From UHGV virus genome UHGV-0195737: a stretch of DNA of 58,116 nt; one strand, 5' to 3'. Positions 10,201 through 53,315 of this stretch are shown one piece after another (position 1 is the stretch's first letter; every line of letters begins with the position of its first letter). The notes below the pieces were generated by a model that saw only the letters and a program-made list of their open reading frames with translations, did no database searches and had not been told where the DNA came from. This stretch comes from a virus. The translations under genes were made by a program, and so were the position numbers.

Positions 10201-11243
10201 GCAATGTTGTCCAGTAAGTCGCGGGCGCTCATTTGCTCCGTAATGTATGCATTAAGCGTCACGCGCGGCTCAAGGCCGCCATAACCATCGTCAACCAACT
10301 GATCGCAGTATTGGGAAAGCGTGTATAATGCGCCGTCGTCAACGTCAATATAACCAGCATGGCGGGCAAGGCCAAAACGCTCGTTTTTAACCAGATACCG
10401 GAAGATCCACGCTGGGTTATTGGTGTACACCTGTTTCATCCCGCCCAGCCATAAACCGGAATAAGTGCGCGTTTCCGGATCGTAGTTATCCGGTACATCA
10501 ACAATCAGGCCACGCATGTGATAAGTGCGTGTCGGCGTGTCGGTATACTGGTCATGATCAATCACCGCGCCCGCTACAGCGGTGTGAGGATAAGACAAGT
10601 TATCGTCGATAATTTCACTGTAGCTATTCCAGCGGGTATCATTCTGCAATAGATCGCCCGTGCTGTCAGGTGTTATGCGGCGAACGCGAATATCGAACGG
10701 TTTTTCGTCCGGCGCATCAATGATGTGTGATTCCAGATATTCACCGCTAATCTTACCCGGACCGATTTGCACGGCCTTAATCGCCGACCAGATTGATGAT
10801 GATGATGGTTTTACATCAATCGCCATAAAAACTGATGTTTCATGCTGGTTTGATTCGCTGTCACTTTCCACCAGTGAATCCACGCCAATATTCAACCGGA
10901 CGCGCGTCACGTTCGGATCTGATACCGTCCTTACCAGTGGCGTGTCATATTTCACCTGCGCGTTAACCATTACCGTAGATTCAATGGCGTTGAAGCCGTT
11001 GATCGGTGACTGGTCGGCAGTACCCGGACGCCAGGCGACGCTAACGCCTGGGATACTGGTATTACCCACGGCATCCGTAACAGGTGTGTCATTAAGCATT
11101 ACGCAGTTTAACGGGGCAGCGGTATTGACCGGACCGTAAATCGGCCCTTCACTCAATATATCCAGAACCCGGTAAAATTGCTTATGAAATAAATTGTCGT
11201 TTATTAATGTTGGTGTTTTTGCTTTACCACCGCCGCCGCCCAT
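7266..11243 (-). CDS. J: Host specificity / tail tip protein J-like
   Basis: N-terminus matches lambda J as recalled (DxxSEGPIxGPV, NDTPV); long central coiled-coil repeat region; position after I. Confidence 0.8.
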   Translation of the reverse strand: MGGGGGKAKTPTLINDNLFHKQFYRVLDILSEGPIYGPVNTAAPLNCVMLNDTPVTDAVGNTSIPGVSVAWRPGTADQSPINGFNAIESTVMVNAQVKYDTPLVRTVSDPNVTRVRLNIGVDSLVESDSESNQHETSVFMAIDVKPSSSSIWSAIKAVQIGPGKISGEYLESHIIDAPDEKPFDIRVRRITPDSTGDLLQNDTRWNSYSEIIDDNLSYPHTAVAGAVIDHDQYTDTPTRTYHMRGLIVDVPDNYDPETRTYSGLWLGGMKQVYTNNPAWIFRYLVKNERFGLARHAGYIDVDDGALYTLSQYCDQLVDDGYGGLEPRVTLNAYITEQMSARDLLDNIAGMFRGIALWDGQTLTVMLDAPQDPIATITNANVVDGAFTRSSIARAECYNAVIVSWTDPENGWEQSKEYVADDELIARDGYNETTLEAFGCTSRGQAYRAGKWLIETAKREPSKFTFKMARDAIHFTPGDIIEILDNNRAGARLGGRIVANNGNVITVDKVDSEYITAGDTISLLDSDGKFKKHQITGVNGNEITLAAAPAWIRNGTVFAVSTEAAKPVLCRITSVAETENNSVYTIEAAQHDPNKQAVVDEGAIFEVNSDTLNHFRVPNIENLKVINIGSETVQCRATWETQTTTRALTFEIRIYDTDGRVVASYETQNYRYDFFGLECGNYSLGIRGRNDTGMKGAETLVDLIVGAPAAPTGVNWVPGVFQATVYPISNSTLTTDTTYEFYYAGENQITDFSLVTTSAQFSGRGYQWTFGGMATGHTYYVYVRTKNAFGVSDFIEASGKPSENFEEITDAVLNEVMEGEQFQDMIKETIDEVTGGLMGDVEELKQTTVDIDQAVTDLKESTADLEERVKNNEDGIGEHESQINEISVELTEQENELIQTRASLQNAAIALMNNSLANTSTRTTLTAQYKNQKAETKAEIERIDTVIATEKEATAQALTTLESKVNDEISANVTELQQTIATLESSTSQSIEKLESQVNEDIQASITEINQTITDLESSTSESISNLEAKVDGDISSAISNMEQALATHEKANATQFNSLQSQIDENEAAITETNQTIATNEQATAQKLEQLQAQIDDDVAAAITEMQSALATHEQANATQFAEISASLEANEASITEWSEAFTTYKESTATQIESITASIEGQSVSIEENKTAIAGLETDMSATWSVKIAADNNGMKYFSGISLGLTGSGTSTQSQCIFLADRFVLMTAANGTYTTPFYVTNGAMYVREAFIKDASITNAKIGSYIQSNNYVSGSTGWKLDKSGTFENYGSVSGEGAMKWTNTTISVRDGNSVLRVQIGRITGSW

Positions 11244-38474: not shown

Positions 38475-38556
38475 GATTTATTCTCCTTCTGTCAGGTGAT
38501 ATATTTCCGCATTTCAGCGGGGCCAGGTTTTTAAAGAGCATTTCGTTTGATTGCAG

Positions 38557-39902: not shown

Positions 39903-40374
39903 TTTTATGATCCTTCGGTGAATACAATAAAGCCTCTTTATTAAACCGCCAGCCGTTACCAAGCTGGAGGCTACCATTCATTATTACTTCGCCACTAGCG
40001 ATCAGGTCGCCTGGTATCGAGGTTTTTTTACAGCCGCAATTTAACGGCATATCAAAAACAGCCTGTTTCTTACTTTGTTCTTCCTCCCGATCCGTTAATA
40101 TTTGCTCTGCTTTTAGCGCGTTATAGCTAATCAAATCAATCAACGTGTCTGTCGGATCTGTTCCGTTGCTTAAAATGGCCCCTAAACGCGCTTCTTTGAG
40201 GCAAATCAGTAGATCCCATACATCAAGCGGGGTTAAATCGGCTCCCTTCTTAGCGTTGTAAATAGTGGCTATTTTTGGCGCTGATTTTTCCTCTTTTTTG
40301 TCGTAGCCGTTTTGCTTACCTCTTTGCTCTATGGTTTCCGCTGCGAGTCTTAATAAATCTGCTGCCTTAGTCAT
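39883..40374 (-). CDS. Hypothetical protein
   Basis: 163-aa ORF between membrane protein and Dam genes. Confidence 0.4.
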   Translation of the reverse strand: MTKAADLLRLAAETIEQRGKQNGYDKKEEKSAPKIATIYNAKKGADLTPLDVWDLLICLKEARLGAILSNGTDPTDTLIDLISYNALKAEQILTDREEEQSKKQAVFDMPLNCGCKKTSIPGDLIASGEVIMNGSLQLGNGWRFNKEALLYSPKDHKNEKGDN

Positions 40375-40907
40375 TATTCTGCACCTCTTGCATATAGCTC
40401 TTTACGTGTTATCTGCGTGAAAATACATTCATGCCTGCATCGTGGATGCCAGATCAAGAACAAGCTACCCTTATTGTTCCCGCTCGCTGGCTTACCAGTC
40501 GCAGCATTAATAAACGCCAGCCGCCCGCGCGTGATCAAGCGACATTCGTTTGCCGTTTCCAGGCCGTTCATAAACCAGTTAACAGAAATATCAGCGGGCA
40601 ATAACATTACACATCCGATATGATTTTGATGGTGCTCAAGTGCCGCCTTATCAACGAATGGCCCCGGATTAGAATATGGTGGATTCATCCAGACATACTC
40701 ACCAGGCATCGCCACCGCTCCCCACGGATAATGTAGTGTGTTCATTTCTTCGGTTATATATCGCGGAACTAATGCGTTTGCCTTGTTTGCCGCCACATCG
40801 GCGACGAATTCGAATTCCCGATCCATTCCTCTAAATACGGGCTTCGGCGTTTGCCAGAGATCCTTAATTTCCTTCGGCGTGTGGCTGCCGCCGTAATCAT
40901 TTTTCAT
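40374..40907 (-). CDS. DNA N6-adenine methyltransferase (phage Dam-type)
   Basis: 177 aa; NPPY catalytic motif; size typical of small phage Dam family. Confidence 0.7.
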   Translation of the reverse strand: MKNDYGGSHTPKEIKDLWQTPKPVFRGMDREFEFVADVAANKANALVPRYITEEMNTLHYPWGAVAMPGEYVWMNPPYSNPGPFVDKAALEHHQNHIGCVMLLPADISVNWFMNGLETANECRLITRGRLAFINAATGKPASGNNKGSLFLIWHPRCRHECIFTQITRKELYARGAE

Positions 40908-40916
40908 TATACCCCC

Positions 40917-41150
40917 TTAAAAATAATCCTGTTCCGTCCCCCAGCGGTTGTTTAAATACCCCACCAACCACACAAACCGCTCAATACTGATTAGCGGGGC
41001 GACCTTGCGATAATGCCTATCGAGTATCAGCCGCGTGGCTTTATCGCTATAGCCGTTTCTTTCTACCTCCGCTTTGCAGGCAGAAAGCGCCGCGCGGGCA
41101 GCAGTTTTAACGGCGTTAAATTGCGGCTCTGACAGGTTGAATAAAGCCAT
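40917..41150 (-). CDS. Hypothetical protein
   Basis: Start set at internal ATG with SD GGTGA. Confidence 0.35.
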   Translation of the reverse strand: MALFNLSEPQFNAVKTAARAALSACKAEVERNGYSDKATRLILDRHYRKVAPLISIERFVWLVGYLNNRWGTEQDYF

Positions 41151-41154
41151 ATAA

Positions 41155-41391
41155 TCACCACGGATCATCCCAATCAGGTGCGGCAGCCCAACAAAAACCC
41201 ATGAAAACACTAAAAGCGATTAGCACGCGTACACCAAAAAACAATTCCGCCCACGGTCGAATATCAGGAAGCGACCATGTGATAAACATTGCACCGACAA
41301 TCAAAACAGCAATAATGACAGTGCACCCCAGGAAAACAAAAAGCGCGGCTAAAAGCCACGCCCCCAAGAAATGAAACAGTTCTCTTAACAT
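41155..41391 (-). CDS. Small membrane protein (2 TM)
   Basis: 78 aa, two hydrophobic helices. Confidence 0.4.
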   Translation of the reverse strand: MLRELFHFLGAWLLAALFVFLGCTVIIAVLIVGAMFITWSLPDIRPWAELFFGVRVLIAFSVFMGFCWAAAPDWDDPW

Positions 41392-41595
41392 TTAAACGTC
41401 CTCAATCACCCCGCCTTTCACGCGCTCTTTAATATCCCACACATGAGGCATACACATTTCCTGATAATAGTGATCCGGCCTGCTGCCGAAATACCATTTG
41501 CCATCCATGTAAAAATAAACGCCCGAAAAATTACCAGGTGCGGCCTTTGTTGCTGCTTCTGGAATTTTCCATTCTCTGTAATGTTTAAACCGCAT
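41392..41595 (-). CDS. Hypothetical small protein
   Basis: 67-aa ORF. Confidence 0.4.
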   Translation of the reverse strand: MRFKHYREWKIPEAATKAAPGNFSGVYFYMDGKWYFGSRPDHYYQEMCMPHVWDIKERVKGGVIEDV

Positions 41596-41779
41596 GTAAC
41601 GATACCTCCCGGATAAGTTTGCTCAATTCAACATCTGGTAGCCTGCGAAAATGCTGTACACCATCGACAAAGCGCACGCAATAAACATCGCCTATATTGT
41701 TGTAGTAATAACAGCCACTAAAACCAATCCCGGCTAATTTGGCGTTGTCCGGTAATGTATAGCCACCAACCTTTTTCAT
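41585..41779 (-). CDS. Hypothetical small protein
   Basis: ATG start (track start is GTG). Confidence 0.4.
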   Translation of the reverse strand: MKKVGGYTLPDNAKLAGIGFSGCYYYNNIGDVYCVRFVDGVQHFRRLPDVELSKLIREVSLHAV

Positions 41780-41797
41780 ATTCAGCCTCACAAATAT

Positions 41798-41965
41798 TTT
41801 TCAATCACCCAGCGGAGAAACAAACCGACCATTACGATCCCCCAGCAACAAGCCATAAACATCAATTCAGCGTCCATTGTGTTTTCCTTCTTCCCAGGCG
41901 AAATAACAAACAAAGCCAACCAGGGCGAACAACCAACAACCCAGGATTAAATCAATCAGCCACAT
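41798..41965 (-). other. Two coupled hydrophobic microprotein ORFs (about 29 and 32 aa)
   Basis: MWLIDLILGCWLFALVGFVCYFAW with SD GGAGG; overlapping start of MDAELMFMACCWGIVMVGLFLRW. Confidence 0.3.
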
Positions 41966-41967
41966 AA

Positions 41968-42186
41968 TCACGCCTCCAGTAAGCCATAATCGAATTTTCC
42001 AAGATATTGCTCGATACCAATCATCTCGACACCCTGGACTTCCGCGCCCCATACAGTTACGTGATAAGCGTCCTCCCGCCATTGTTCGTGGCTTAACACT
42101 TCGTTTGCCGGATATTTCCGCCCGGCGACGTAAGCGCCCGGACCTACGCCACCCTCTACGCAATGCAGCATGATTTGGTTTTCCAT
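41968..42186 (-). CDS. Hypothetical protein
   Basis: ATG with SD GGGGTGGA; the overlapping Arg-rich track ORF 41867-42163 is judged spurious. Confidence 0.4.
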   Translation of the reverse strand: MENQIMLHCVEGGVGPGAYVAGRKYPANEVLSHEQWREDAYHVTVWGAEVQGVEMIGIEQYLGKFDYGLLEA

Positions 42187-42196
42187 ATCCACCCCG

Positions 42197-42379
42197 CTAA
42201 TAGCAAACCGCGTACATACAGATCCCGTTGTTGAAGGCTTTGATAATCAGGTCAATGATCATGTAAACGAGCATTACAGCCGCCGCCGGGACCAGAATCG
42301 CGAATAGTCCGCCTAACGTGCGCTCAATGATGAAGTGCGGGTTTAGTTTGCTTTTGTGGTTACGTTCAAAGTTTGTCAT
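42197..42379 (-). CDS. Small membrane protein
   Basis: About 60 aa from internal ATG; one TM helix. Confidence 0.35.
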   Translation of the reverse strand: MTNFERNHKSKLNPHFIIERTLGGLFAILVPAAAVMLVYMIIDLIIKAFNNGICMYAVCY

Positions 42380-42416
42380 TTTCCCGCCCTCCGTTCTGTA
42401 TACCTTTCGATTTAAG

Positions 42417-42475
42417 TTTACAAAACGGATACAGCAGGACAAGACAAAATGTATATTTATGTGATCGCAATCACG
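42417..42475. promoter_or_regulatory. Intergenic element B (homologue of element A)
   Basis: TACAAAACGGATAC...TGTGATCGCAATCACG; near-CRP palindrome. Confidence 0.4.
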
Positions 42476-42478
42476 CTG

Positions 42479-43099
42479 TTAATGAAGTACGCGTTTTTCC
42501 GGCTCATGAATAGGCTGTGCGTTTTTCCGTGCATCATTAAGCACAGCGATAGCCGCCTGTACGCCTAATTCATTAGCTCGCATATCATCGCCAACGAAAT
42601 TTCCGTAAAGCACCGGAATAAACGCCTTAACGTTCACTTCTTCGTGTCCTTCCTCAACAAATTTCTGTAACATCTTAACCTCAAAGATGCCTTTCATCAG
42701 TTCGCGCATACAATGCAGTGAAGCACTACCGAACTGATCCTTACTTAACGGGAAAATAACAGCACTTCCGAACGCGAGCGGATCAACTTCCTCCGGTACT
42801 GGTACGCGTCCGAATTCTTCCTCCATGCGTTTTACAAAAGAAAGGCAGAACACATAACGCGCAATATCTGTTTTTTCTTCCAGGCTTAAATCAACGTAAT
42901 CGCGGATTGATGCATCCATCATAATATCAACAATCTGTAGCGCCAGGTTTAAATCGGCGTCATACGCGCCAGCGTTCATATCTTTTAATACTTCGTGATA
43001 ATCCTTCGTTTCCACTTCATGAAAACTTGCGTCCTCCGCGTAGCGAGTGATTAACATGCCGTCGCTGCCGAGTGAATAAGCTGTTTTGATATTGTTCAT
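42479..43099 (-). CDS. Hypothetical protein (early operon)
   Basis: 206 aa from ATG with SD AAGGA. Confidence 0.45.
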   Translation of the reverse strand: MNNIKTAYSLGSDGMLITRYAEDASFHEVETKDYHEVLKDMNAGAYDADLNLALQIVDIMMDASIRDYVDLSLEEKTDIARYVFCLSFVKRMEEEFGRVPVPEEVDPLAFGSAVIFPLSKDQFGSASLHCMRELMKGIFEVKMLQKFVEEGHEEVNVKAFIPVLYGNFVGDDMRANELGVQAAIAVLNDARKNAQPIHEPEKRVLH

Positions 43100-43110
43100 A
43101 ATATTTATCC

Positions 43111-43443
43111 TTATAGTGGATGATGCCATTTCATTTCAGTTTCTGGATTGAACGGGTTTCCTTCGCTTGAAAGGAATAAATCACGCTCCCGTTTCAGTTC
43201 TTCCGGGCTTATTTCCATTTCGTCAATCTGACCGAACGATCCCGGCATCATTCGTTTTAAATCAGATAGCGGACGCATAAGGCCACAGCCACGTAACAGC
43301 ATATCTACCGCAAATTGTCGCCGCCCGCCAGCATCATTGAAGCGACGCGCCCACGGCACACACACGATCCGGCGTTCGAATTCAATGAATAGAGATAGCT
43401 TGTTTGTGTTAGCGTCATACGCTTTGTGGAATTTAATTTTCAT
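43111..43443 (-). CDS. Hypothetical protein
   Basis: 110-aa ORF. Confidence 0.4.
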   Translation of the reverse strand: MKIKFHKAYDANTNKLSLFIEFERRIVCVPWARRFNDAGGRRQFAVDMLLRGCGLMRPLSDLKRMMPGSFGQIDEMEISPEELKRERDLFLSSEGNPFNPETEMKWHHPL

Positions 43444-43626
43444 TTATAACACCTCGACATATTGTTCAAGATGCCATTGGCCTACCTCGTCGTAATCTTC
43501 ATCGAATATTGTTACCTGACCCCCTGGCCCGAAATAAAAGGCAGTAGCAATAAATTCATATCCCCACCACGCGCGGATCTTCTCACCGCCTTTCAGGTCT
43601 TTAACCTTCACCAATTTTATAGCCAT
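43444..43626 (-). CDS. Hypothetical small protein
   Basis: 60-aa ORF. Confidence 0.35.
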   Translation of the reverse strand: MAIKLVKVKDLKGGEKIRAWWGYEFIATAFYFGPGGQVTIFDEDYDEVGQWHLEQYVEVL

Positions 43627-43889
43627 ACGCCGAACATCCCATTTAGACCAGCGAACAACCGCCGCCAGTGGTTTTCAACATAAGCCCGGAACGGCTTAAC
43701 ACGAACATTGCGGGCCGTTAGTACGATACTATCGAAGTAGCGCGGCTCGATCAGCGTGCCATCTAAATATTGAACAAGTAACGGTCGTTCAAGATCGCTA
43801 CATGTTTTATTCAGCACGACCAGGCCAGGATCACTACGATATGCAGGCAAAACAACGAGATCACCCGCCTTTGCATCCCAAATCATCAT
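43617..43889 (-). CDS. Hypothetical protein
   Basis: First ATG (track start is GTG). Confidence 0.4.
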   Translation of the reverse strand: MMIWDAKAGDLVVLPAYRSDPGLVVLNKTCSDLERPLLVQYLDGTLIEPRYFDSIVLTARNVRVKPFRAYVENHWRRLFAGLNGMFGVWL

Positions 43890-44130
43890 CACATTAACCC
43901 CTTACCAATAAAGCTAATCACCGCCGCCAGTGCGCCGCAAAACACAACCGTAAACAGGAAGCAAATAACGCAAAACGCAACCCTTACAATATCCTTACCG
44001 ACTTTCATAATTGGCCTCACATATTAGTAATCAGTTTGATGATCGCCACCGTGATATAAAGCGAAACACTGAGATACAGCACCGCCACTGCTACCGCCGC
44101 GAGCAATGCGGCAATTTTTGCGAGATTCAT
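43889..44130 (-). other. Two coupled hydrophobic microprotein ORFs (about 37 and 39 aa)
   Basis: MNLAKIAALLAAVAVAVLYLSVSLYITVAIIKLITNM and MKVGKDIVRVAFCVICFLFTVVFCGALAAVISFIGKGLM; ATGA overlap with upstream gene. Confidence 0.3.
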
Positions 44131-44393
44131 TTGCCACCCTCCGCAATGAATTTATCAAGCCATTTATTATTCGCCAGACGTTCGGCGTCTTCGCCAAATG
44201 ATTTACGGTTACTTAATTCCTGGCGAGTAGGGAAAGGCCATTTATCCACCCACCCCGCAGACGTTTCGAATTCATAGTTACCGCCGCCGAAATCAATAAA
44301 GACGTCACTATCATCAAGACTTTCCGCAGTCCTCTGAAAACCTCTGCCGTTATTTTCGCTTAATGTTGTAGCTGTCATGATTCGATACCTCAT
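44127..44393 (-). CDS. Hypothetical protein
   Basis: 88-aa ORF. Confidence 0.4.
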   Translation of the reverse strand: MRYRIMTATTLSENNGRGFQRTAESLDDSDVFIDFGGGNYEFETSAGWVDKWPFPTRQELSNRKSFGEDAERLANNKWLDKFIAEGGK

Positions 44394-44671
44394 TAATCGT
44401 TAATAACCTGGCCCATACGCCCGCGATATTTGCGCATACGTGGATCGACATATTCAGGCCACTGCATATCCGGTTTTCTTTGCAGCGGGTAAAAACTCGC
44501 TTGCCAGTTGTCAAACCAGATTTGCTTTGCGTACAGGTCACTAAATCTTTTCGCCATTCGTTCCGCTGCCGTGCCACATAAAAAAAGCCCCCGATCGATT
44601 TGATCGCGGGCTTCTTTTAATACTTGCTCTTTTGTTCGTGGCGGCGGTGGCGGTTTTAAATAATCACCCAT
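44393..44671 (-). CDS. Hypothetical protein
   Basis: 92-aa ORF; Pro-rich N-terminus. Confidence 0.4.
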   Translation of the reverse strand: MGDYLKPPPPPRTKEQVLKEARDQIDRGLFLCGTAAERMAKRFSDLYAKQIWFDNWQASFYPLQRKPDMQWPEYVDPRMRKYRGRMGQVIND

Positions 44672-44687
44672 CGCTAACCTATTGATT

Positions 44688-45107
44688 CTAAAAAGGAATA
44701 TCGTCGTCGAAGTCCATCGGCGGAGGATTGTTCCCGTTATTATTCTGCTGCTGCGGCGGCGCTTTCTGCTGCTGGCCTTGCTGCTGGCCCTGCTGGTTAA
44801 CGTTCATGAATTCGAATTCACTGACCGCTACTTCTACAGCCGTTCCCTTCGTGCCGTCGTTCCGGTCATATTGCCGAACATCCAGGCGACCGCTTACCAC
44901 TATCTTTCCGCCCTTGCGGATATGCGGCGCTAATTTTTCCGCACGCTCACCAAATACCAGGCAAGTGATCCACATTGTCCGCTTATTATCGCCGTAGCCA
45001 TTCGTTACAGCTAACGAGAAACTACCAATCGCTTTTCCGTTTTGCGTGTAGCGAATTTCCATGTCGTTTCCGATATTTCCGCCCAGCGTGATTGAATTTA
45101 AACTCAT
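44688..45107 (-). CDS. ssb: Single-stranded DNA-binding protein
   Basis: OB-fold-sized N-terminus, Gln/Gly-rich linker, canonical acidic tail DFDDDIPF. Confidence 0.85.
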   Translation of the reverse strand: MSLNSITLGGNIGNDMEIRYTQNGKAIGSFSLAVTNGYGDNKRTMWITCLVFGERAEKLAPHIRKGGKIVVSGRLDVRQYDRNDGTKGTAVEVAVSEFEFMNVNQQGQQQGQQQKAPPQQQNNNGNNPPPMDFDDDIPF

Positions 45108-45748
45108 TAATTAATCTCCCCGTTAAGCTCTTTTAAGCGAATGTCATAAACGTCTTTCGCTTTTTGTTGTTGTTCTGAATCTTTAGGCAGTAGCTTCCAG
45201 CACTTGCCGAAGATCTCGCGCAATTTGTTCGCGTCCGGCGCTTTCGCTGCCGCATCACAGAAACGTGCTAACACTTCATCAGGATTTGGTGGCGCTTTCT
45301 GCTGCTGCGGTTGTTGTTTTGGCGGGTTTTTCTGCTGGCGTGGCTGTTGATTTGTCTGTTTAGCATAAGCATCAGTATCAGCGTCTTTCGCGTCGTCTAT
45401 GCAGAATAAACCGTTCAAGGCATATTTCCGCGCGTAACTTGATGTTGCTCCTGTTAGCTGGCTTGCATCCATACCGCGCTTGTTTTCTTCCTCCCTTGCG
45501 TAAGCAGTTACCGCTATTGCGTCCTCGCCGTCGCTTAATGTCGCAGTGGCTTTAACGTAATAACGCTCACCAATCAGGATAATTTCATCATTCAGCGTTA
45601 GTGTGACATTTTGAAGTAGCGGTTTAACCGCTTCCAGAATATCCTCCGCTGAACGATAGCTATAACCCCCGAAGTTATTACGCTGATTCTTAGGCGCGTT
45701 AAGCGTCTGCTGAATCGTCCACAGTTTCTTGTGTAGCTCTGTTTTCAC
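45107..45748 (-). CDS. erf: Erf-family single-strand annealing protein
   Basis: GGYSYRSAEDI-type ERF signature; Gln/Pro-rich linker; GTG start with SD AAGGAG. Confidence 0.65.
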   Translation of the reverse strand: MKTELHKKLWTIQQTLNAPKNQRNNFGGYSYRSAEDILEAVKPLLQNVTLTLNDEIILIGERYYVKATATLSDGEDAIAVTAYAREEENKRGMDASQLTGATSSYARKYALNGLFCIDDAKDADTDAYAKQTNQQPRQQKNPPKQQPQQQKAPPNPDEVLARFCDAAAKAPDANKLREIFGKCWKLLPKDSEQQQKAKDVYDIRLKELNGEIN

Positions 45749-45858
45749 CCTTTAATCTCCTTCGCTGTTAATACCACATACAAGGCTTTATTCGCGGCGC
45801 TCCACATTTCGGCATCGTGAAGCATTTCCGCTACCGCCAGTTTGAATTGAAGCGCCTG
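45736..45858 (-). CDS. Hypothetical small protein (40 aa)
   Basis: Strong SD AGGAGGTGA; not in track. Confidence 0.35.
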
Positions 45859-45897
45859 GATAACCATAATGTCACCTCCTGTTGTTTACGTTATGTA

Positions 45898-46188
45898 TTA
45901 ATGGTATCGGACTTTATCGAGGGGTTTTTCCCCAAGCTGGCGCGGCTGCGTTGCGTGAAAGTAGTTGCCGCTTTCATTTTCCTGATACCATTTTGTTGCT
46001 CCCTTGCGACGTCCTTTAACGCTATTTGGTTCGCATTTTTCCTCATTTGCAAAGCGAATAGCTTTTTCCACTCTATCAACCTTCTGTATGTGCGGGCCTT
46101 CATCTTGCTCTGCTGCCCGTTTCATCCGTCGGCGGGCGCGGGCGTTAAGTTTGCTCTCACAGTTACCGTAAGTAATTTTCGCATTCAT
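45898..46188 (-). CDS. N: N-like transcription antiterminator
   Basis: Arg-rich motif ARARRRMKRAAEQ near N-terminus; resembles P22 gp24 as recalled; nut-like site upstream. Confidence 0.5.
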   Translation of the reverse strand: MNAKITYGNCESKLNARARRRMKRAAEQDEGPHIQKVDRVEKAIRFANEEKCEPNSVKGRRKGATKWYQENESGNYFHATQPRQLGEKPLDKVRYH

Positions 46189-46218
46189 AATCTTATTTCC
46201 TTAGTTGAAATTTATGTC

Positions 46219-46252
46219 TGCACATTTCAGTGCAACCGGATTGTTAAAGAGC
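46219..46252 (-). promoter_or_regulatory. nutL-like site (boxA + boxB hairpin)
   Basis: Minus strand reads GCTCTTTAACAAT (rrn/lambda boxA-like), then hairpin TGCAC-TGAAAT-GTGCA, about 30 nt before N start. Confidence 0.45.
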
Positions 46253-46417
46253 ATTTTCAAACTTCCTTTTTTCTACTGCCTTCCCTCCTTTGACTCGCAA
46301 TATACGCCCCGTGATATGTTGAGTCAATCCATTTTGTATACTTTTTTAAAATATTTTCTATCTCATTGATATTCAAACAATAAAAACTGTTTTCGGTTTA
46401 CGTTTTGGTGCTTTCCG

Positions 46418-46444
46418 GGCAAAGAAAAGCCGCCATCCGGCGGC
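46418..46444 (-). terminator. Terminator after repressor gene
   Basis: GCCGCC-GGAT-GGCGGC stem followed by TTTTCTTT on minus strand. Confidence 0.55.
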
Positions 46445-46450
46445 TAATGT

Positions 46451-47098
46451 TTATGGCAGGTTTACGATCTTTGCATCCACCACCACGCCAATAATTTTTG
46501 ATTCAGGGTTTAGCGGGATTGGTGGGTACAGCGGATTAAGCGAACGTAAAAGCCTTTGACCTCCATCAATGATTAACTGTTTAAACGTCGGCGTTTGCCC
46601 TTCCTCCAGTTGGGCTATAACCAGTTTGCCGTCAATAGCTGGCGCGTGCGGATCGACAAGTATCATCGTCCCTGCCGGGATACTTAATCCCTGCGGTGCG
46701 TTCATTGACTCACCTTTTGCGACCAGCCAATAACTATCATCCGAACAAATCACGCTCGTGTTAACGTGTGGTAGTAATGCGCGTTTTGCTTCTTCCATGT
46801 AGTTTCCTGCGTCTTTCCAGTCAATAACCGGATAACGTCCCACGTCGAGCGGCGGCGCTCCCGGCAACGTATTTGAAACTGAATCATCGATAACCATCCC
46901 GTCATGAGTGACCGTAAACTGCCGACGACCAAGCGCCCGCATAATCCGCGCAATATCTTCAAGATTTGGCTCGCGGCGACCATTCAGCCAGTGAGATAAG
47001 CCGCCTTTTGTGATCCCCATGAGATCCGCCAATGAATCCTGGCTCATGCCTTGCGCCCGCATGAGTTGTTTTGCTAAGTCATACCATTTTGTTTTCAT
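46451..47098 (-). CDS. CI-like repressor (HTH plus LexA-type S24 peptidase domain)
   Basis: N-terminal HTH (QDSLADLMGITKGGLSHWLNG); C-terminal AKGESM serine motif and downstream Lys. Confidence 0.75.
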   Translation of the reverse strand: MKTKWYDLAKQLMRAQGMSQDSLADLMGITKGGLSHWLNGRREPNLEDIARIMRALGRRQFTVTHDGMVIDDSVSNTLPGAPPLDVGRYPVIDWKDAGNYMEEAKRALLPHVNTSVICSDDSYWLVAKGESMNAPQGLSIPAGTMILVDPHAPAIDGKLVIAQLEEGQTPTFKQLIIDGGQRLLRSLNPLYPPIPLNPESKIIGVVVDAKIVNLP

Positions 47099-47126
47099 AT
47101 CGCTACCCTATCGCCCTAAAAAGTTT

Positions 47127-47222
47127 GATGCAAGTCACAAAATGTATTTTTCAAGCCTTGACCGAAAAACACCATTCTGTAAACTTGCAGACAAGGTAAA
47201 GCCGGACTTGCAAAGACGCAAG
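47127..47222. promoter_or_regulatory. Operator/divergent promoter region
   Basis: Inverted repeats TCAAGcCTTGA, CTTGcagaCAAG, CTTGCaaagacGCAAG, plus TGCAAGTCA/GACTTGCA pair. Confidence 0.4.
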
Positions 47223-47265
47223 AAAAAAGATGAGGGAATAGCACAAAAAGGCGCATACCTTAAAA

Positions 47266-47298
47266 GCTCTTTAAAAACCTGGTGTCGCTGCGAAGCGA
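47266..47298 (+). promoter_or_regulatory. nutR-like site (boxA + boxB hairpin)
   Basis: GCTCTTTAA then 10 nt then TCGCT-GCGA-AGCGA hairpin, upstream of the first plus-strand gene. Confidence 0.4.
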
Positions 47299-47405
47299 AA
47301 AACAAATATCACGCAACGGCGGGATCTGTTGAGCGGTCAATCACTGCTACCTAATGCTAATGGGATACCCGCCCGCGCGTTCATTTTAACCATAGGAGAA
47401 ACACA

Positions 47406-47660
47406 ATGAGTATGCACATGATGAATGAGGCTTGGAAAGTGGAACTTAACAGCCCGATTCAAAAACTTGTCTTAATGGCTCTGGCTGAAAAGGCAGATAA
47501 TCGCCGCCACGCCAGGGTATCACACCAAGAAATCGCAAAAATGTGTGAAATTCCTGTAAGTACGGTGATACTTGCTATCAACGGATTAACACACAAAGGA
47601 TTTATTTGTAACCCTTACCCGGTAAATGACGTTTACCTGGTAATGCTGCCGGAGGAATAG
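47406..47660 (+). CDS. Winged-helix regulatory protein (Cro/CII position)
   Basis: 84 aa; HTH-like segment SHQEIAKMCEIPVSTVILAINGL; first gene of rightward operon. Confidence 0.45.
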   Translation: MSMHMMNEAWKVELNSPIQKLVLMALAEKADNRRHARVSHQEIAKMCEIPVSTVILAINGLTHKGFICNPYPVNDVYLVMLPEE

Positions 47661-47662
47661 AA

Positions 47663-48775
47663 ATGAAGTGGTTTAAGCATGATAGCGATGCGAACCGCGA
47701 TGAAAAACTTCAAAACGTTTTGCTTGATTATGGCCTGGAAGGATACGGGCTTTATTGGTATTGCATCGAGTTAATAGCCTACGAAGTAGATCAACATAAT
47801 CTGACATTCGAACTAAAACACGATGCAAGAATCATTGCCCGGAACGTAGGATCAAGTCCGAAACGTGTAGAAGAAATGATGAGATACTTCATCGAAGTTG
47901 GCTTGTTCGACTGCTCACATGGCGTTGTAAGATGCCTGTCGTTAGCAAAAAGACTTGATCAATCAATGGCTTCGTCAAAAAGCGAATTTAGAGAGGCAAT
48001 TAAAAGGCTAAACGTCAAAAAAAATAAAAAGTTAGATAATCCTTTAGTGGAAGTAAATAATTCACCAGATACAGAAAAAGAAAAACCATGGCACAACCAT
48101 GATGCAGCCATGGCACAACCATGGCACAACCATGGATTAGAAGTAGAAGTAGAAGAAGAAATAGAAACAGAAGAAGAAAAGAAAAATATAAAAAGAAAAG
48201 AAGTCAATCAGGACGGTGACTTTCAGATAAGCGAATCTGCATTGCGTTGCCTGGCTTTCTACAACGAAAAGGCAGGATGCAAATGTCGTGATACTAAGCC
48301 ATTCATCGAACTACTGACAGAAACAAAAACACGTAAGGCATACACGGAGGATGAGATCACATTAGTAATTGAGTGGGCTTTGACGCAATGGCGTAGCCGT
48401 GGTGGAGTGCCTAAGCCTGTTAACATTTGCCGGGTAACTAAGTTTGATGGGTATCTGGCTGATGCTGAACAATGGCGCAAGCTGTCAGCTACTGTAAACG
48501 CTGCCGACGTGGTGGAAGCATTTAACAGCACGTTTGACGGCCTGTTACCACCTGCCGAACTGGATCGGGATATTGAACGTAAGATCCATTCGCTATCTGA
48601 CTACCTGAAAGACAAAAGCGTTGACAGCTTTATTGCTTACTTCCAGAAATTTAAAGCTGATGCGCCGAACTTCTATTTCGGTGAGAATGAAAGCGGCTGG
48701 CTGGCTGATATAGATTTTCTGTTGAAGCCGGAAACGCTCCGCAAGACGCGTAACTTCCAACATATACCATCATGA
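47663..48775 (+). CDS. Replication initiation protein (replisome organiser-like)
   Basis: 370 aa; N-terminal phage replisome-organiser-like region; iterons plus AT-rich tract inside the gene; upstream of DnaB. Confidence 0.6.
   Translation: MKWFKHDSDANRDEKLQNVLLDYGLEGYGLYWYCIELIAYEVDQHNLTFELKHDARIIARNVGSSPKRVEEMMRYFIEVGLFDCSHGVVRCLSLAKRLDQSMASSKSEFREAIKRLNVKKNKKLDNPLVEVNNSPDTEKEKPWHNHDAAMAQPWHNHGLEVEVEEEIETEEEKKNIKRKEVNQDGDFQISESALRCLAFYNEKAGCKCRDTKPFIELLTETKTRKAYTEDEITLVIEWALTQWRSRGGVPKPVNICRVTKFDGYLADAEQWRKLSATVNAADVVEAFNSTFDGLLPPAELDRDIERKIHSLSDYLKDKSVDSFIAYFQKFKADAPNFYFGENESGWLADIDFLLKPETLRKTRNFQHIPS
48086..48200. repeat. Putative origin: iterons plus AT/purine-rich tract
   Basis: CCATGGCACAA x3 plus degenerate copy, then GAAGTAGAAG...AAAAATATAAAAAG. 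Confidence 0.45.
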
Positions 48776-48899
48776 ATTACCAAAAATCCAAAATTACCCA
48801 CAAAACAAGCTCACCAGCGAGCTAAATCGCATTGGGTGCTACACTTGCTTACCTTTTTGCGATTAGCTCGTCAGAGAGCGTTACAGAGAGGATTTTAAA

Positions 48900-49001
48900 A
48901 TGGACGGTAAACACGTTTTCGCCCTGGCTTTTGCCATCGCTGCGGCAATCGCTGTTAACGTCGCCTTGTTCGGCGGTTTGTTCCTTCTAGTCAATCCATA
49001 A
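48900..49001 (+). CDS. Putative hydrophobic microprotein (33 aa)
   Basis: MDGKHVFALAFAIAAAIAVNVALFGGLFLLVNP; SD GAGAGG. Confidence 0.3.
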   Translation: MDGKHVFALAFAIAAAIAVNVALFGGLFLLVNP

Positions 49002-49133
49002 CCTACCTACCAGTCTGTAAATCGAAAATTAGCCACCTGATAGCGTTTCTGACGCAATAAGACACTGCAACCTGTGCAAACGGGTTACGCGGTGGGATTT
49101 TTGCGTTGTAGCGCGTTTTACGGAGAAATTACA

Positions 49134-49904
49134 ATGTCTGAATTAATGGTTTTTGATAACGTTAAAATGAATAGTATTGAAATTTCAGAGTTGGTTGGTA
49201 AGCGTCATGATAACGTAAAACGCACTATCGAGACGCTTGCTAATAATGGGATTATCCGACTTCCTCAAATTGAGGTTTTCGGAAAAATCAATAACTTAGG
49301 ATTGATTCGTGGCGTGGACGCTTACGTTTTTGAAGGGGAGGAAGGCAAGCGAGATAGTATTATTGTGGTCGCACAGCTTTGCCCTGAACTTACGGCGCGG
49401 ATCGTTGACCGCTGGCAGGAACTTGAAAACGCAGTCCGGCAAAATGCTGTTCCAAATTACGGTAACACACAGATCAGTAATGTTCTTGCTTTTGCTGAAA
49501 CGGCGGGCCGAATGCTGAATATGAGTAATTCAGGTAAGTTAGGTATGCTACAGAAGATTGAGAAGGAATATAATATTCCTCCTATCCTTCCGCATTACGC
49601 TATTGACGCTCCTTCTGATGCTGTGGACGGATCAAGCCGCGTGACCAAATCACTGACAGCATTGTTAGAAGAAAATAACGTTGGCATGACTGCGCGTGAA
49701 GTTTACCCAATCCTTGAACGCAAAGGCATTGTCGATCGCAAGTATCGTAAAGCAAAATGCGGAGAAAAAAGATTCTGGAATGTAACTGTGTATGGTCTGC
49801 GATACGGAAAAAATATAACCAACCCATCTAATCAGAGAGAAACACAGCCGCATTTTTATGAATCAAGATTTAAAGAGTTATTGAATATTATTTTTTCTGA
49901 ATGA
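49134..49904 (+). CDS. Rha-family phage regulatory protein
   Basis: N-terminal SELVGKRHDNVKRTIETL matches Rha family signature; SD GGAGAA. Confidence 0.6.
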   Translation: MSELMVFDNVKMNSIEISELVGKRHDNVKRTIETLANNGIIRLPQIEVFGKINNLGLIRGVDAYVFEGEEGKRDSIIVVAQLCPELTARIVDRWQELENAVRQNAVPNYGNTQISNVLAFAETAGRMLNMSNSGKLGMLQKIEKEYNIPPILPHYAIDAPSDAVDGSSRVTKSLTALLEENNVGMTAREVYPILERKGIVDRKYRKAKCGEKRFWNVTVYGLRYGKNITNPSNQRETQPHFYESRFKELLNIIFSE

Positions 49905-49937
49905 GTATACATTCCGTAAACCGGAGGAAATAACGTT

Positions 49938-51056
49938 ATGTCACAGAGAAAGATCAGCGATGAGCAACTGATCGCTGAGTACAACAAGGGGAAGACTTAC
50001 AAGCAAATAGCCGAAGAATATGGAATGGCAAAACGCAACGTCGAACGCCTGGGCGCACGGCTGGCTAAGCGCGGTTTAATATCCACGCGCCGCGCTCCTG
50101 GCTTCGGTGTTAACGGTGAATCATTGCTCGTTGATAAGGATGGCAATGTAATCATGCGCTGGATTAAAACGGCCCGTGACCGTGAGGAAATGGAAAGGCT
50201 AACGCAAGCGGCTTGCGACGCATTCACGGAAGAAATACCACGCGCGGAGGTAGTGCCAGTGCCGGAAATTGATTTCCAAAAAAGCCTGGCCCTTTATCCG
50301 GTATTCGATCTGCATATCGGGGCGCTTGCACATAAAGCTGAATGCGGAGAAAGCTACGACACCGGGATCGCCGAACGCGTGCTAAATGACTTCTTCGACT
50401 ACGCGGTAGGCGCTGCACCAACGTCTGAGAAGGCTGTTTTGCTTCTCGGAGGCGATCTACTTCACTCTGACGGGATGATCCCGGTTACACCGACAAGCGG
50501 GCATATTCTTGATCAGGATAGCCGCTACGCAAAACTTGTTTATGTGGCGATCCGGTCGGTCCGGCGTGCGGTGGGGAAAATGTTGTTAAACCATAAGGAC
50601 GTCGAGATACAAGTGTTATCCGGCAATCACGATCAGTCGGGGATGATCTGGCTACGTGCGGCGCTGGCGGCTTTTTACGAGGATGAACCGCGCGTAACGG
50701 TTGATGTATCACCTGCTATCGTCCACCACACGCAGTACGGTAAAACATTCCTTGCTTATCATCACGGGCACACCATCAAAAAACCCGAAAATTTGTTAGC
50801 TGCCTGTGTTTCTGACTGGCGGGAGGACTTCGGCAAGTCGGCGGCGGTTTACGCTCACACGGGGCATCTGCATCATCAATCTGTCGTAGAAACATCATTA
50901 GGGATCGTTGAGCACCACGGCACGTTAGCGGGTAAAGACGCTTATTCAACGAATGGCGGTTGGCGGTCGCGGCGGCTGGCGGCGGTGATAATTTACAGCC
51001 CGGATTATGGGGAAATCGGGCGCTTTGTTTATTACCCTGAATATTCCATTTTGTAA
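49938..51056 (+). CDS. HTH - metallophosphoesterase fusion protein
   Basis: N-terminal HTH (YKQIAEEYGMAKRNVERL); calcineurin-like phosphoesterase motifs DLH, GGDLLH, GNHD, HHGH, GHLHH. Confidence 0.55.
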   Translation: MSQRKISDEQLIAEYNKGKTYKQIAEEYGMAKRNVERLGARLAKRGLISTRRAPGFGVNGESLLVDKDGNVIMRWIKTARDREEMERLTQAACDAFTEEIPRAEVVPVPEIDFQKSLALYPVFDLHIGALAHKAECGESYDTGIAERVLNDFFDYAVGAAPTSEKAVLLLGGDLLHSDGMIPVTPTSGHILDQDSRYAKLVYVAIRSVRRAVGKMLLNHKDVEIQVLSGNHDQSGMIWLRAALAAFYEDEPRVTVDVSPAIVHHTQYGKTFLAYHHGHTIKKPENLLAACVSDWREDFGKSAAVYAHTGHLHHQSVVETSLGIVEHHGTLAGKDAYSTNGGWRSRRLAAVIIYSPDYGEIGRFVYYPEYSIL

Positions 51057-51074
51057 ACCGGAGGCGACGCCATA

Positions 51075-52496
51075 ATGATAACTGAGCAAGTAAACTCATT
51101 GCGGCAAGAAAGGGAATCGGCGGTTATTGGTGGACTTCTGTTAGGCGGGCTTACCCCTAACGCGCAAGATGTTCTTGCTACACTCGATCCAGAAGTTTTC
51201 ACTATTCCGCTATACAGACGGGCGTTCGAAATTATCCGGGCGCAAGCCAGAAACAGAAATCTCATCGATGCGTTATTGGTTGGCGATGAAATCGGTAACG
51301 AAAACTTCATACCGCTGATGCAAACGGCGCGATCGTGTCCTTCGGCTGCCAACCTGAAAGGGTATGCCGAATTATTGCAGGAAGAACACCAGCGGCGGCA
51401 AATGTTGGACCTGATAGAAGATATTCGCTACAAACTGGAAACGGGTACGCTTGAAGTTGTCAGGGAAACGATGAAAGATTTTGATTCCCGGTATTCAAAA
51501 TTAAAAGTAACGAAAGGCGAAATCCTCCCGGTGCTGTTGCGCGACGCGGTGCAGGAATACACGGAAGTGCTAAGTAAGCGCATGGAATGCGGCGTAAACT
51601 CCGACAACATCAAAACAGGGATTGACCCACTCGACGAAATGTTAGGCGGCATTAACGCCACTGATTTAGTGCTCATCGCCGGACGTCCGGGATCTGGTAA
51701 ATCGGCGTTAGCGTTGGCAATTGCCCGCGCGGCGGCTGAGAGACCTTACCCTGGCGGCGAAGGAAATCGTGTCGGTGTTTTGCTCTTTACGCTTGAAATG
51801 TCGCTCGATCAAATAACTGAGCGGGCCATCGCTGGTGCGGGGAATTTATCAACGGATTGTTTGCGTAATCCGGTAAAACTTGACGATGAGGGGTGGGCGC
51901 ACGTCGCCCAGGGTATGAGCGCCCTCGCCGATCTCGACGTATGGATTGTTGACGCATCGCAGTTAACGGTCGAGGAAATACGCGCCACCACCGAACGTAT
52001 GAAACAGGACCATCCCAACCTGGGAATGGTAATGATTGACTACATCGGGTTAATGAAGCTGGCTAAGGCCGAACGTCATGATCTTGCCGTAGGGCAATTG
52101 TCGCGGTCATTGAAAATGATGGCGAAGGAATTGCGCGTACCAGTGGCGGCGCTGGCGCAATTATCCCGCCGCGTTGAGGAACGACCGAACAAGCGCCCGA
52201 ACAATTCTGATCTGCGTGATTCCGGTAATCTGGAGCAAGATGCGGACCGGATCATCATGGTCTACCGTGATGGCTACTACAACGAACAATCTGTTGCCCG
52301 CGAATATATGGAGATCATCGTTTCAAAAAACCGTCACGGGAAAACGGGCACTGTTTACCAGCGGTTTGACGACAACGGCAATATCTTACCATGTGACCAG
52401 GCCCGCGCGGCGTCCGCTTGCATCCAGTCAATGCAACAACGTCCGGCGGCAAGCCGATTCTCCCCACGAAACAACCAGAATAACTCATCCTTTTAA
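51075..52496 (+). CDS. dnaB: Replicative DNA helicase (DnaB family)
   Basis: Walker A GRPGSGKS, Walker B LGMVMIDY; 473 aa. Confidence 0.85.
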   Translation: MITEQVNSLRQERESAVIGGLLLGGLTPNAQDVLATLDPEVFTIPLYRRAFEIIRAQARNRNLIDALLVGDEIGNENFIPLMQTARSCPSAANLKGYAELLQEEHQRRQMLDLIEDIRYKLETGTLEVVRETMKDFDSRYSKLKVTKGEILPVLLRDAVQEYTEVLSKRMECGVNSDNIKTGIDPLDEMLGGINATDLVLIAGRPGSGKSALALAIARAAAERPYPGGEGNRVGVLLFTLEMSLDQITERAIAGAGNLSTDCLRNPVKLDDEGWAHVAQGMSALADLDVWIVDASQLTVEEIRATTERMKQDHPNLGMVMIDYIGLMKLAKAERHDLAVGQLSRSLKMMAKELRVPVAALAQLSRRVEERPNKRPNNSDLRDSGNLEQDADRIIMVYRDGYYNEQSVAREYMEIIVSKNRHGKTGTVYQRFDDNGNILPCDQARAASACIQSMQQRPAASRFSPRNNQNNSSF

Positions 52497-52575
52497 TTAA
52501 CTTGAGTAAACGGCTTACCGGAAAGCTGACCGCTTTCTGGTGGCTGTTTTCGCGCTTAAATCGAGGCTAAAAACA

Positions 52576-53103
52576 ATGAAAACCACTTATAAAACACAAA
52601 TAGCGAATTTTTTACAGGATGCTACTGTCGCGGGTGAAGCAACAATCATTAAATCTATTCCAGGTCCTGAAATCGAGATTGTTAACAGTTTGCGTGATAT
52701 GGTTTCTGACGGCGCTATTATTCCTGTGGAAATGGGAGGACCACGGTTATCATATTGCTTGAAGTCAGTGCGCGAAATGGCAATAAAAAAAATCATGCCT
52801 TTATTTCTGAATAGTAGCGATTATTTTTCTGCTGAGGATGTTAAGAAGAAATTAAAACTCGAAATAAAACAGAGAAAAATCTGTCGGGTTTTAAAGATGT
52901 TAGGTAGTGAAAATTTATTAACTGTCAATAAATTTGACGGGAAATATTTTTTTAGATCAGCTCGCTTCTATGGTTGTTCAAGTCCTATCGTATTTGAATT
53001 TAACAGCCGCCTGAACGAATACCGGAAAAATAACGGCTTGTTACCGGATAAACCAGCATTTGAAATCGAAAAACTTAACGGTGAAACGGGGTTAGAATTA
53101 TGA
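52576..53103 (+). CDS. Hypothetical protein (AT-rich accessory gene)
   Basis: 176 aa from first ATG; markedly AT-rich relative to flanking replication genes. Confidence 0.4.
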   Translation: MKTTYKTQIANFLQDATVAGEATIIKSIPGPEIEIVNSLRDMVSDGAIIPVEMGGPRLSYCLKSVREMAIKKIMPLFLNSSDYFSAEDVKKKLKLEIKQRKICRVLKMLGSENLLTVNKFDGKYFFRSARFYGCSSPIVFEFNSRLNEYRKNNGLLPDKPAFEIEKLNGETGLEL

Positions 53104-53306
53104 GACGGGTAATCTTTTATTCAGTTGAAACATTCATTGATGAATCACATTTCCGTTTTCCATGCAATTCTTGTGGCGCAATGGTTTATACACCTCCGCT
53201 AATGCGCAAATACAGACACGTAAGATTTAGCTGGGCTTTCGTTCCAATTCGTGAGGCGTTGCGGGCGCTGCGTGGGGAATTAAGAAACACAATGCGGATT
53301 GTGTAA
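53100..53306 (+). CDS. Hypothetical small protein
   Basis: 68 aa; start overlaps upstream stop. Confidence 0.35.
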   Translation: MRRVIFYSVETFIDESHFRFPCNSCGAMVYTPPLMRKYRHVRFSWAFVPIREALRALRGELRNTMRIV

Positions 53307-53315
53307 GGGGGAGTT

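Follow-up and report, generated by a model that had tools for sequence, protein, structure and literature searches.

A probable bidirectional N-type antitermination module with three boxA-boxB nut sites in an mEp021-like temperate coliphage

Do the divergent early operons of the phage genome UHGV-0195737 carry RNA sites through which an N-like protein could act on transcription in both directions? The whole stretch of 58,116 nucleotides that was analysed is referred to here as the window. A sequence-only reading of it had described a boxA followed by a short hairpin in the leader of each operon and an arginine-rich motif (ARM) in the N-like protein, and had proposed N-type antitermination in both directions, with the reservation that the two boxB loops differ. 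The coordinates of the features are collected in Table 1.

Table 1. Nut sites, genes and predicted transcription signals of the region, in window coordinates
Feature	Position	Strand	Description
Nut site 1	46219-46252	-	boxA, spacer and boxB; position of mEp021 nutR1
Nut site 2	47266-47298	+	boxA, spacer and boxB in the replication-operon leader; position of mEp021 nutL
Nut site 3	38507-38539	-	boxA, spacer and boxB; position of mEp021 nutR2
N-like antiterminator gene, 96 aa	45898-46188	-	ARM and orthology to mEp021 Gp17
CI/LexA-type repressor gene	46451-47098	-	HTH_3 and Peptidase_S24; between the early promoters
Repressor gene terminator	46428-46445		terminator of the CI/LexA-type gene
Dcm-like methyltransferase gene	38638-39402	-	leftward operon
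Q-like late antiterminator gene	36373-37095	-	PHROG 127, E 1.7e-77
Leftward early promoter-like site	46299-46327	-	TTGACT-17-TATATT, 10/12, best of the region
Rightward early promoter-like site	47158-47185	+	TTGACC-16-TAAACT
Promoter-like site before site 3	38555-38582	-	TTGTCC-16-TATACT, 16 nt upstream of boxA
Strong terminator-like hairpin, 16 pairs	38590-38625	-	after the Dcm-like gene, before site 3
Terminator-like hairpin with U8	38235-38253	-	within the ninG-like gene, between site 3 and the Q-like gene
Terminator-like hairpin, 12 pairs	41339-41365	-	leftward operon, between sites 1 and 3
Candidate terminator-like hairpin, 12 pairs	52515-52543	+	rightward operon, gap after the helicase gene
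Weaker candidate terminator-like hairpin	48960-48977	+	rightward operon

When the interval 45800-47700 was searched by megablast, the sole phage matches were the mEpimmI coliphages (mEp013, mEp554, mEp515, mEp021, mEp044 and mEp010) and MagusPhagus, at 84-88% DNA identity, and 35 E. coli chromosomes also matched, as prophages with the same gene order. An IMG/VR contig, IMGVR_UViG_3300045988_076772, was 100% identical to positions 35901-54578 of the window (18.7 kb). The gene order of the window was that of the mEpimmI phage records, and in mEp021 the repressor, ERF, SSB, Dcm, NinG, RusA, Q and Lin1244-type replication genes follow one another in the same order. Judged by DNA homology and synteny, the window belongs to the mEpimmI group of mEp021-like temperate coliphages, and it very probably carries an early processive-antitermination module. 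The group has been reported to consist of Nus-dependent, non-lambdoid temperate phages (PMC11893012).

Site 1, in the leftward leader, began with the boxA GCTCTTTAA (RNA GCUCUUUAA; 46252..46244, minus strand), which with its flanks reads UGCUCUUUAACAA, and continued through a 9-nt spacer (CAATCCGGT; RNA CAAUCCGGU) to the boxB hairpin UGCAC-UGAAAU-GUGCA (46234..46219, minus strand), the end of which lies 30 nt from the ATG of the N-like gene (46188). In the rightward leader, site 2 had the boxA GCTCTTTAA (47266-47274, plus strand), a 10-nt spacer (AAACCTGGTG; RNA AAACCUGGUG) and the boxB hairpin UCGCU-GCGA-AGCGA, or UCGC-U-GCGA-A-GCGA (47285-47298, plus strand), and 107 nt separated the hairpin from the first rightward ORF (ATG at 47406). 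The boxA and hairpin that the sequence-only reading had placed on each strand could be read directly at exactly the positions it gave, with spacers of 9 and 10 nt. Both of its sites stood, but its count was incomplete. A third site, 7.7 kb further down the leftward operon, was located between the Dcm-like (cytosine methyltransferase) and ninF-like genes, with the ninG, rusA and Q-like genes further downstream, and was made up of the boxA GCTCTTTAA (38539..38531, minus strand), the spacer AAACCTGGCC (RNA AAACCUGGCC) and the boxB hairpin CCGC-UGAAAU-GCGG (38520..38507, minus strand).

All three sites had the boxA-boxB layout of lambdoid phages, with 9-10 nt between boxA and a stem of 4-5 bp that carried a U-GNRA-W loop. 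The sequence AAYCYGG was kept in every spacer, the stems differed from one another, and the invariant core of boxB was C-U-G-N-R-A-W-G, in which a GNRA tetraloop has U on one side and U/A on the other and is set on a C-G pair. The loops of sites 1 and 2 do differ in sequence, as had been pointed out, but the difference is no objection to a common function, because both UGAAAU and UGCGAA follow a single U-GNRA-U/A design.

The same arrangement has been described in mEp021, where the N-like protein Gp17 was reported to have been shown experimentally to be responsible for early antitermination (PMC11893012, citing Valencia-Toxqui et al. 2023). According to the same account (Negrete-Mendez et al. 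2025, PMC11893012, which cites Valencia-Toxqui et al. 2023, Arch Virol 168:92), Gp17 is required for antitermination in mEp021, antitermination in the mEp group is Nus-dependent, and the targets of Gp17 are three nut sites: nutR1 upstream of gp17, nutL adjoining the repressor gene and nutR2 on the downstream side of the cytosine methyltransferase gene. The three sites, Gp17 and four of its arginines (R17, R19, R20 and R24) were described there as conserved in 48 genomes, with nutR1 the most variable of the three sites (PMC11893012). In the mEp021 record (MH706966), three-part sites were found with boxA at 12225-12233 (upstream of gp17), at 11001..10993 on the complement (the gap between gp14 and the repressor gene) and at 20172-20180 (the Dcm/NinF gap), and sites occupied these three positions in the window and in 47 other loci as well. 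By the positions described in PMC11893012, sites 1, 2 and 3 of the window would correspond to nutR1, nutL and nutR2, respectively, the leftward site being nutR1 and the rightward site nutL in the published orientation.

Because the system had already been published for mEp021 and its relatives, the finding is correct but not new, and the window is a further member of a known family, with a minority allele. Like mEp021, it encodes an orthologous N-like protein of the same length with the same conserved arginines and has three nut sites at the same positions, and the two phages have nearly the same sequence at both site 2 and site 3. Unlike mEp021, it has the minority ARM RRRMKRAAEQDE rather than RRRIKRENERKS, and its N-proximal boxB is UGCAC-UGAAAU-GUGCA rather than GCCGC-UGGAAGU-GCGGC. 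An insert of about 210 nt between the promoter and the nut site (gp16 in mEp021), present in mEp021 and most relatives, is absent from the window.

The RNA elements were compared over 49 loci (the window, 43 IMG/VR contigs, four phage records and two prophages); one more contig, L052, escaped the search pattern. The loss of boxA from related phages would have spoken against the proposal, and the opposite was found: all three sites were present in all of the related loci wherever the flank extended to them, and boxA was the most conserved part of all of them. Site 1 occurred with three versions of its stem (UGCAC/GUGCA, GCUAC/GUAGC and GCCGC/GCGGC), and the outer pair of site 3 was C-G, G.U or A-U. 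Site 2 was nearly invariant, with the loops GCGA, GUGA and GCAA and, in mEp515, a change of the closing U-A to U.U. Across the sites the natural loop variants were all GNRA (GAAA, GCGA, GUGA and GCAA), closed by U.U or U-A. In an alignment of 13 distinct variants, the rows of which were chosen by hand and also served to derive the structure, the 5-pair boxB helix was 98.2% paired as compared with 81% in shuffles, none of 500 shuffles equalled it, and sliding the register brought the pairing down to 14-65%. Compensatory changes on both sides were seen in three of the five pairs. The compensatory changes in the stems, together with loop variation that preserved GNRA, argue for selection on the RNA structure.

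Folding, which had been suggested as a check of sites 1 and 2, gave a mixed answer. Their hairpins were the minimum free energy or centroid structure in short contexts, and the hairpin of site 3 was likewise predicted there, but the stability was ordinary, with z-scores of -1 to -2 in short contexts and about 0 in 75-nt contexts, and for site 2 the minimum free energy structure of the 75-nt context took another pairing. Since the stability is not exceptional, the structure is supported by comparison and not by thermodynamics; thermodynamic z-scores are uninformative for hairpins so short. A search of Rfam in evalue mode over positions 36000-50000 returned no nut, put or other family apart from a single chance match to Thr_leader (E 0.77).

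The folding result bears on a narrower explanation, that the leftward operon alone is under N control and the rightward hairpin, with its GCGA loop and U-A closing pair, is no boxB and has another role or none. In its favour, besides the alternative pairing of site 2, are the departure of that loop from the UGAAAU of sites 1 and 3 and the outcome of a consensus scan, which placed no strong intrinsic terminator close downstream. Site 2 nevertheless has the same boxA, AAYCYGG spacer and C-U-G-N-R-A-W-G core as the two leftward sites, its variants in relatives (GUGA, GCAA and U-GCGA-U) keep the GNRA design, and a functional nutL is listed at its position (PMC11893012); the explanation is judged very unlikely.

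The promoters and terminators discussed here are pattern matches from consensus scans rather than mapped ends, and the rightward terminators are candidates at the consensus level. With that reading, each nut site had a promoter-like site upstream and a terminator-like hairpin downstream, and sites 1 and 2 were located in the leaders of the divergent early operons, each preceded by one of the region's best sigma-70-like promoters. On the leftward side, 47 nt separated the -10 hexamer from boxA, which would place boxA at about +40, and the promoter-like site was contained in a 38-bp imperfect palindrome (46290-46327). On the rightward side, the distance from the -10 hexamer to boxA was 81 nt, and boxA would be at about +74.

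The leftward operon began with the N-like gene, a Kil-like mini-ORF, ERF and SSB and, after further genes, reached the Dcm-like gene, which was followed by the 16-pair hairpin, a promoter-like site, site 3, the ninF-like gene, the ninG-like gene with its internal hairpin and U8 tract, rusA and the Q-like gene. Read-through from sites 1 and 3 should be needed for the distal Q-like gene to be expressed. The 16-pair hairpin had the location of TERM_4 in the mEp021 record, and ARNold terminators are annotated at the equivalent of the ninG-internal hairpin in mEp013, mEp554 and mEp515. The 12-pair hairpin between sites 1 and 3 was located inside a small ORF, and its function as a terminator is uncertain. 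The rightward operon ran from a gene for an HTH_36 protein through the Lin1244-type replication protein gene and further genes to the helicase gene and the 12-pair hairpin beyond it, which is a candidate target of antitermination from site 2.

In the sequence before site 3, TTGTY and GTATCCATTTTGTATACT are conserved among the relatives, whereas both the intervening 9-10 nt and the loop of the terminator are free to vary, and for this reason the sequence suggests that a promoter with an added conserved element precedes the site. The promoter-like element also carried a 12-nt motif with 11 copies in the genome; the copies of CCRTTYTGTAWA may be either an operator for the CI/LexA-type repressor or just a promoter element. 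A palindrome, TGTGA-N6-TCACA, in the same interval coincided with the apex of the 16-pair hairpin and varied at its centre among relatives; it may act either as a CRP site or as part of the terminator-like hairpin.

The N-like gene was the first after the leftward promoter-like site and encoded a small basic protein with an N-terminal ARM, as in lambdoid phages. The ARM that had been noted was present as KLNARARRRMKRAAEQ (N15 A16 R17 A18 R19 R20 R21 M22 K23 R24, residues 15-24). The protein shared 72% identity with mEp021 Gp17 (96/96 aa aligned, E 7e-54) and 91% with its orthologues from the prophages of E. coli STEC308 and RM9245. The alignment of orthologues left 66 of the 96 positions invariant, arginines included, and R17, R19, R20, R21 and R24 were invariant in the seven aligned orthologues; the protein is an orthologue of Gp17 with the ARM arginines conserved. 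It matched PHROG 271, 'anti-termination protein N-like' (E 3.8e-9), a cluster looser than the Pfam N families. Its score against Pfam N_peptide (PF25694) was 17.1 bits, below the cutoff of 27.9, and membership of that family was not assigned; the same model, which is of the P22 type, gave 152 bits for P22 gp24 and 16.4 bits for lambda N. Pfam N36 (PF11438) did not match the protein, and nothing was retrieved from PDB sequences with a profile of the N-like proteins even at E 10. A scan of the GTDB species-representative genomes found no relative of the N-like protein, an outcome that is probably due to the use of exact-word patterns and of one genome per species and is not evidence of absence.

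The flanked boxA of site 1, UGCUCUUUAACAA, is a 13-mer that equals the full rrn boxA core. That identity and the conservation of boxA above all other parts of the sites would fit rrn-type antitermination, in which boxA recruits NusB/NusE (with NusG and SuhB), neither a phage protein nor a GNRA boxB read by an ARM is needed, and the hairpins and the basic protein would be dispensable. The compensatory changes and GNRA-preserving variation of the hairpins argue against this, as do the invariant arginines and the general conservation of the ARM protein, and in mEp021 Gp17 is reported as required (PMC11893012). Even less probability is given to this explanation than to control of the leftward operon alone.

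The motifs are short, and their frequency in the window was compared with chance. The exact 9-mer GCTCTTTAA occurred five times against 0.57 expected, a number reached in none of 100 shuffles, but with one mismatch allowed there were 22 occurrences against 14.9 expected; boxA alone is weak evidence because the one-mismatch form is not enriched. The composite GCTCTTTAA-N12-17-CTGNRAWG occurred three times against 0.00 expected, each time co-oriented with transcription and in an intergenic leader; the third occurrence, at 38510-38539 (minus strand), belongs to site 3. The two remaining exact copies of GCTCTTTAA (17140 and 41424, both on the plus strand) were rejected as nut sites: no CUGNRAWG hairpin follows either, and the copy at 41424 is also antisense to its surrounding operon. 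That the pairs of motif and hairpin arose by chance, or serve RNase III, translational control of the N-like gene (the site 1 hairpin lies close enough to its start codon to affect translation) or DNA operators, is scarcely credible given the composite counts, the orientation and leader positions of the sites and their three syntenic places in 49 loci.

Covariation, synteny and the experiments reported on mEp021 together make these three explanations unlikely. N-type antitermination in both directions, as the sequence-only reading proposed, is instead supported by the orthology to Gp17, by the placement of the sites relative to promoters and operons and by the conserved, covarying sites, and the window very probably carries an N-type early antitermination module that acts in both directions.

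Comparison with P22 showed how close the RNA sites are to those of a lambdoid phage. In the P22 phage record, nutL reads CGCUCUUUAA-N10-GCGC-U-GACAA-A-GCGC and nutR reads CGCUCUUUAC-CAAUCUGAA-CCGC-C-GACAA-C-GCGG. The boxA GCUCUUUAA is identical, the spacer of 9-10 nt includes CAAUCUG, and the stems are alike, the boxB of P22 nutR resembling that of site 3 (CCGC-U-GAAA-U-GCGG); in both phages the closing pair is Watson-Crick at one site and a pyrimidine mismatch at another. Unlike P22, the window has a 4-nt GNRA loop with U/U or U/A flanks, one base shorter than GACAA, and three sites, the rightward one before the first gene and not after cro, in a non-lambdoid genome. In published structures the pentaloop of P22 adopts a GNRA tetraloop fold from which the third base is extruded, and if that fold holds, the loops of the window would by analogy be the P22 fold minus the extra base.

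An alignment of the ARM to N proteins had been recommended. The N-terminal 50 residues could be aligned weakly to P22 N (BLASTP E 2e-4; hhalign E 3e-4, with a probability of only 38%), and P22 gp24 and the N-like protein share the N-terminal pattern ITYG...NA+xRR...ID+V.KAI. Beyond the ARM, no sequence similarity to lambda N was detectable, its central and C-terminal parts included. The general design is still that of lambda, with a small basic protein carrying an N-terminal ARM and, in both early operons, a boxA and a boxB hairpin of 5 bp whose loop is A-rich and GNRA-like, but the lambda boxA is CGCUCUUA and its stems are identical at both sites, with the pentaloops GAAGA and GAAAA (GCCCU-GAAGA/GAAAA-AGGGC).

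The ARM RRRMKRAAEQDE was found in 6 of 50 loci, the window included, and RRRIKRENERKS in the other 44. RRRMKRAAEQDE always accompanied the site 1 loop UGAAAU, and RRRIKRENERKS always accompanied UGGAAGU or UGGAAGC. Since sites 2 and 3 are alike in both allele groups, this linkage may reflect a shared recombination module rather than a changed specificity.

These observations can be drawn into one reading, in which 1) boxB is a GNRA tetraloop closed by U.U or U-A, that is, the P22 boxB minus its extruded base, read by an ARM distantly like that of P22 N, 2) the ARM allele and the N-proximal loop were switched together (RRRMKRAAEQDE with UGAAAU, RRRIKRENERKS with UGGAAGU) and 3) site 3 is owed to its own conserved promoter, so that a second class of transcripts, which lead to the Q-like gene, would receive N independently. 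This joint reading is put forward tentatively, as possible rather than probable.

As to the mechanism of the module, the two divergent early promoters, as judged from their consensus sequences, would direct RNA polymerase through a nut site within about 40-120 nt. If the N proteins of lambda and P22 are a guide, the boxA of each nut RNA would be the binding element for NusB/NusE(S10), and boxB, with its 4-5 bp stem and U-GNRA-U/A hexaloop, would be bound by the N-terminal ARM of the 96-aa protein. The complex of N, Nus factors and RNA would then make the polymerase resistant to downstream terminators, as has been reported for Gp17 of mEp021, rather than for the phage of the window (PMC11893012). 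Site 3 may load or reload N on polymerase bound through the ninG-internal terminator to the Q-like regulator, since both a strong terminator and a promoter-like element that is conserved precede the site. If the promoter before site 3 fires, its transcripts, beginning about 10 nt ahead of boxA, would pass the ninG-internal terminator and reach Q only with a nut site of their own; alternatively, N would be reloaded there on polymerase coming from site 1.

This mechanism is taken over from the published mEp021 system, and ultimately from lambda and P22, and the general picture of N-type antitermination is unchanged. The N/nut module of a non-lambdoid phage could be recovered by reading the sequence alone, and an uncultivated IMG/VR phage is now assigned to the mEpimmI group. 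The additions are small, namely the U-GNRA-W loop rule with its natural variants, the near-identity to the P22 boxB stems, the linkage of ARM allele and loop and the probable promoter at site 3, and they supply concrete RNA-peptide pairs for the question of how an ARM peptide reads tetraloops as opposed to pentaloops.

In the leftward early operon, the -10 hexamer and boxA were 46 nt apart in the window; the corresponding distance was 42 nt in mEp013 and 255-258 nt in mEp021, mEp515 and two E. coli prophages, as determined by comparing the leader at 46253-46298 with those of four related loci, designated L003, L004, L005 and L008. The additional promoter-to-boxA DNA of mEp021 contained a small ORF, gp16. 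The 40-aa ORF directly 3' of the N-like gene resembled Lambda_Kil below the family threshold, scoring 21.1 bits (E 2.2e-4) against a cutoff of 27.6 bits. On the rightward side (47099-47660), no cro-like gene was found between the promoter and the nut site and the operon began with an HTH_36 gene, so that the rightward nut site was located in the 5' leader, whereas in lambda and P22 it follows cro.

The last 18.7 kb of the IMG/VR contig IMGVR_UViG_3300045988_076772 (54578 bp) were 100% identical to 35901-54578 of the window. Among the complete E. coli genomes of the collection searched, none matched 45800-47700 above the 90-95% identity band, the top value among the matches listed being 92.5%.

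An asymmetric 12-nt motif, CCRTTYTGTAWA, occurred 11 times in the window, compared with 0.085 expected, and a search for the 16-mer ATCCATTTTGTATACT that tolerated as many as 3 mismatches found 9 sites, compared with 0.73 expected. The copies were located within or close to intergenic gaps, usually with a co-oriented start codon 25-80 nt downstream, and several formed inverted pairs. The 3' part of the motif constituted the -10 hexamer of both the rightward early promoter and the promoter-like site preceding the nut site at 38507-38539. A 13-mer form was conserved at two positions in nearly all relatives. The motif may act as a promoter element specific to this phage family, or as an operator bound by the repressor or by a different regulator; the operator sequences of the repressor were not identified in PMC11893012.

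Coordinates of the 12-nt motif copies and of other features of the window
Feature	Position	Strand
CCRTTYTGTAWA copies	15286, 18513, 38568, 42428	-
CCRTTYTGTAWA copies	18530, 32346, 38624, 42391, 46329, 47172, 51046	+
Terminator-like hairpin	38590-38625	-
40-aa ORF	45745-45867	-
Imperfect palindrome (38 bp)	46290-46327	
TGCAAGTC/GACTTGCA inverted repeats	47129 and 47205	
84-aa HTH_36 protein gene	47406-47660	+
Lin1244-type replication gene	47663-48775	
CCATGGCACAA, three copies	48085-48133	+
GAAGA/GTAGAA repeat tract	48139-48177	

The leftward early promoter was enclosed by an imperfect palindrome, TTGACTCGCAATAT / ATATGTTGAGTCAA, with 14-nt arms that were 79% complementary, a possible operator. 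Separate inverted repeats were present in the rightward promoter region. Upstream of the nut site at 38507-38539, the apex of a 16-pair hairpin carried TGTGA-N6-TCACA, a sequence that also corresponds to the CRP half-site consensus. Among relatives, its arms were conserved and the central 6 nt were variable; either a terminator-like hairpin or a CRP site fits this element.

Within the Lin1244-type replication gene, the three CCATGGCACAA repeats were followed by a purine-rich repeat tract. These iteron-like repeats may mark a replication origin inside the initiator gene, an arrangement that would resemble that of lambda O.
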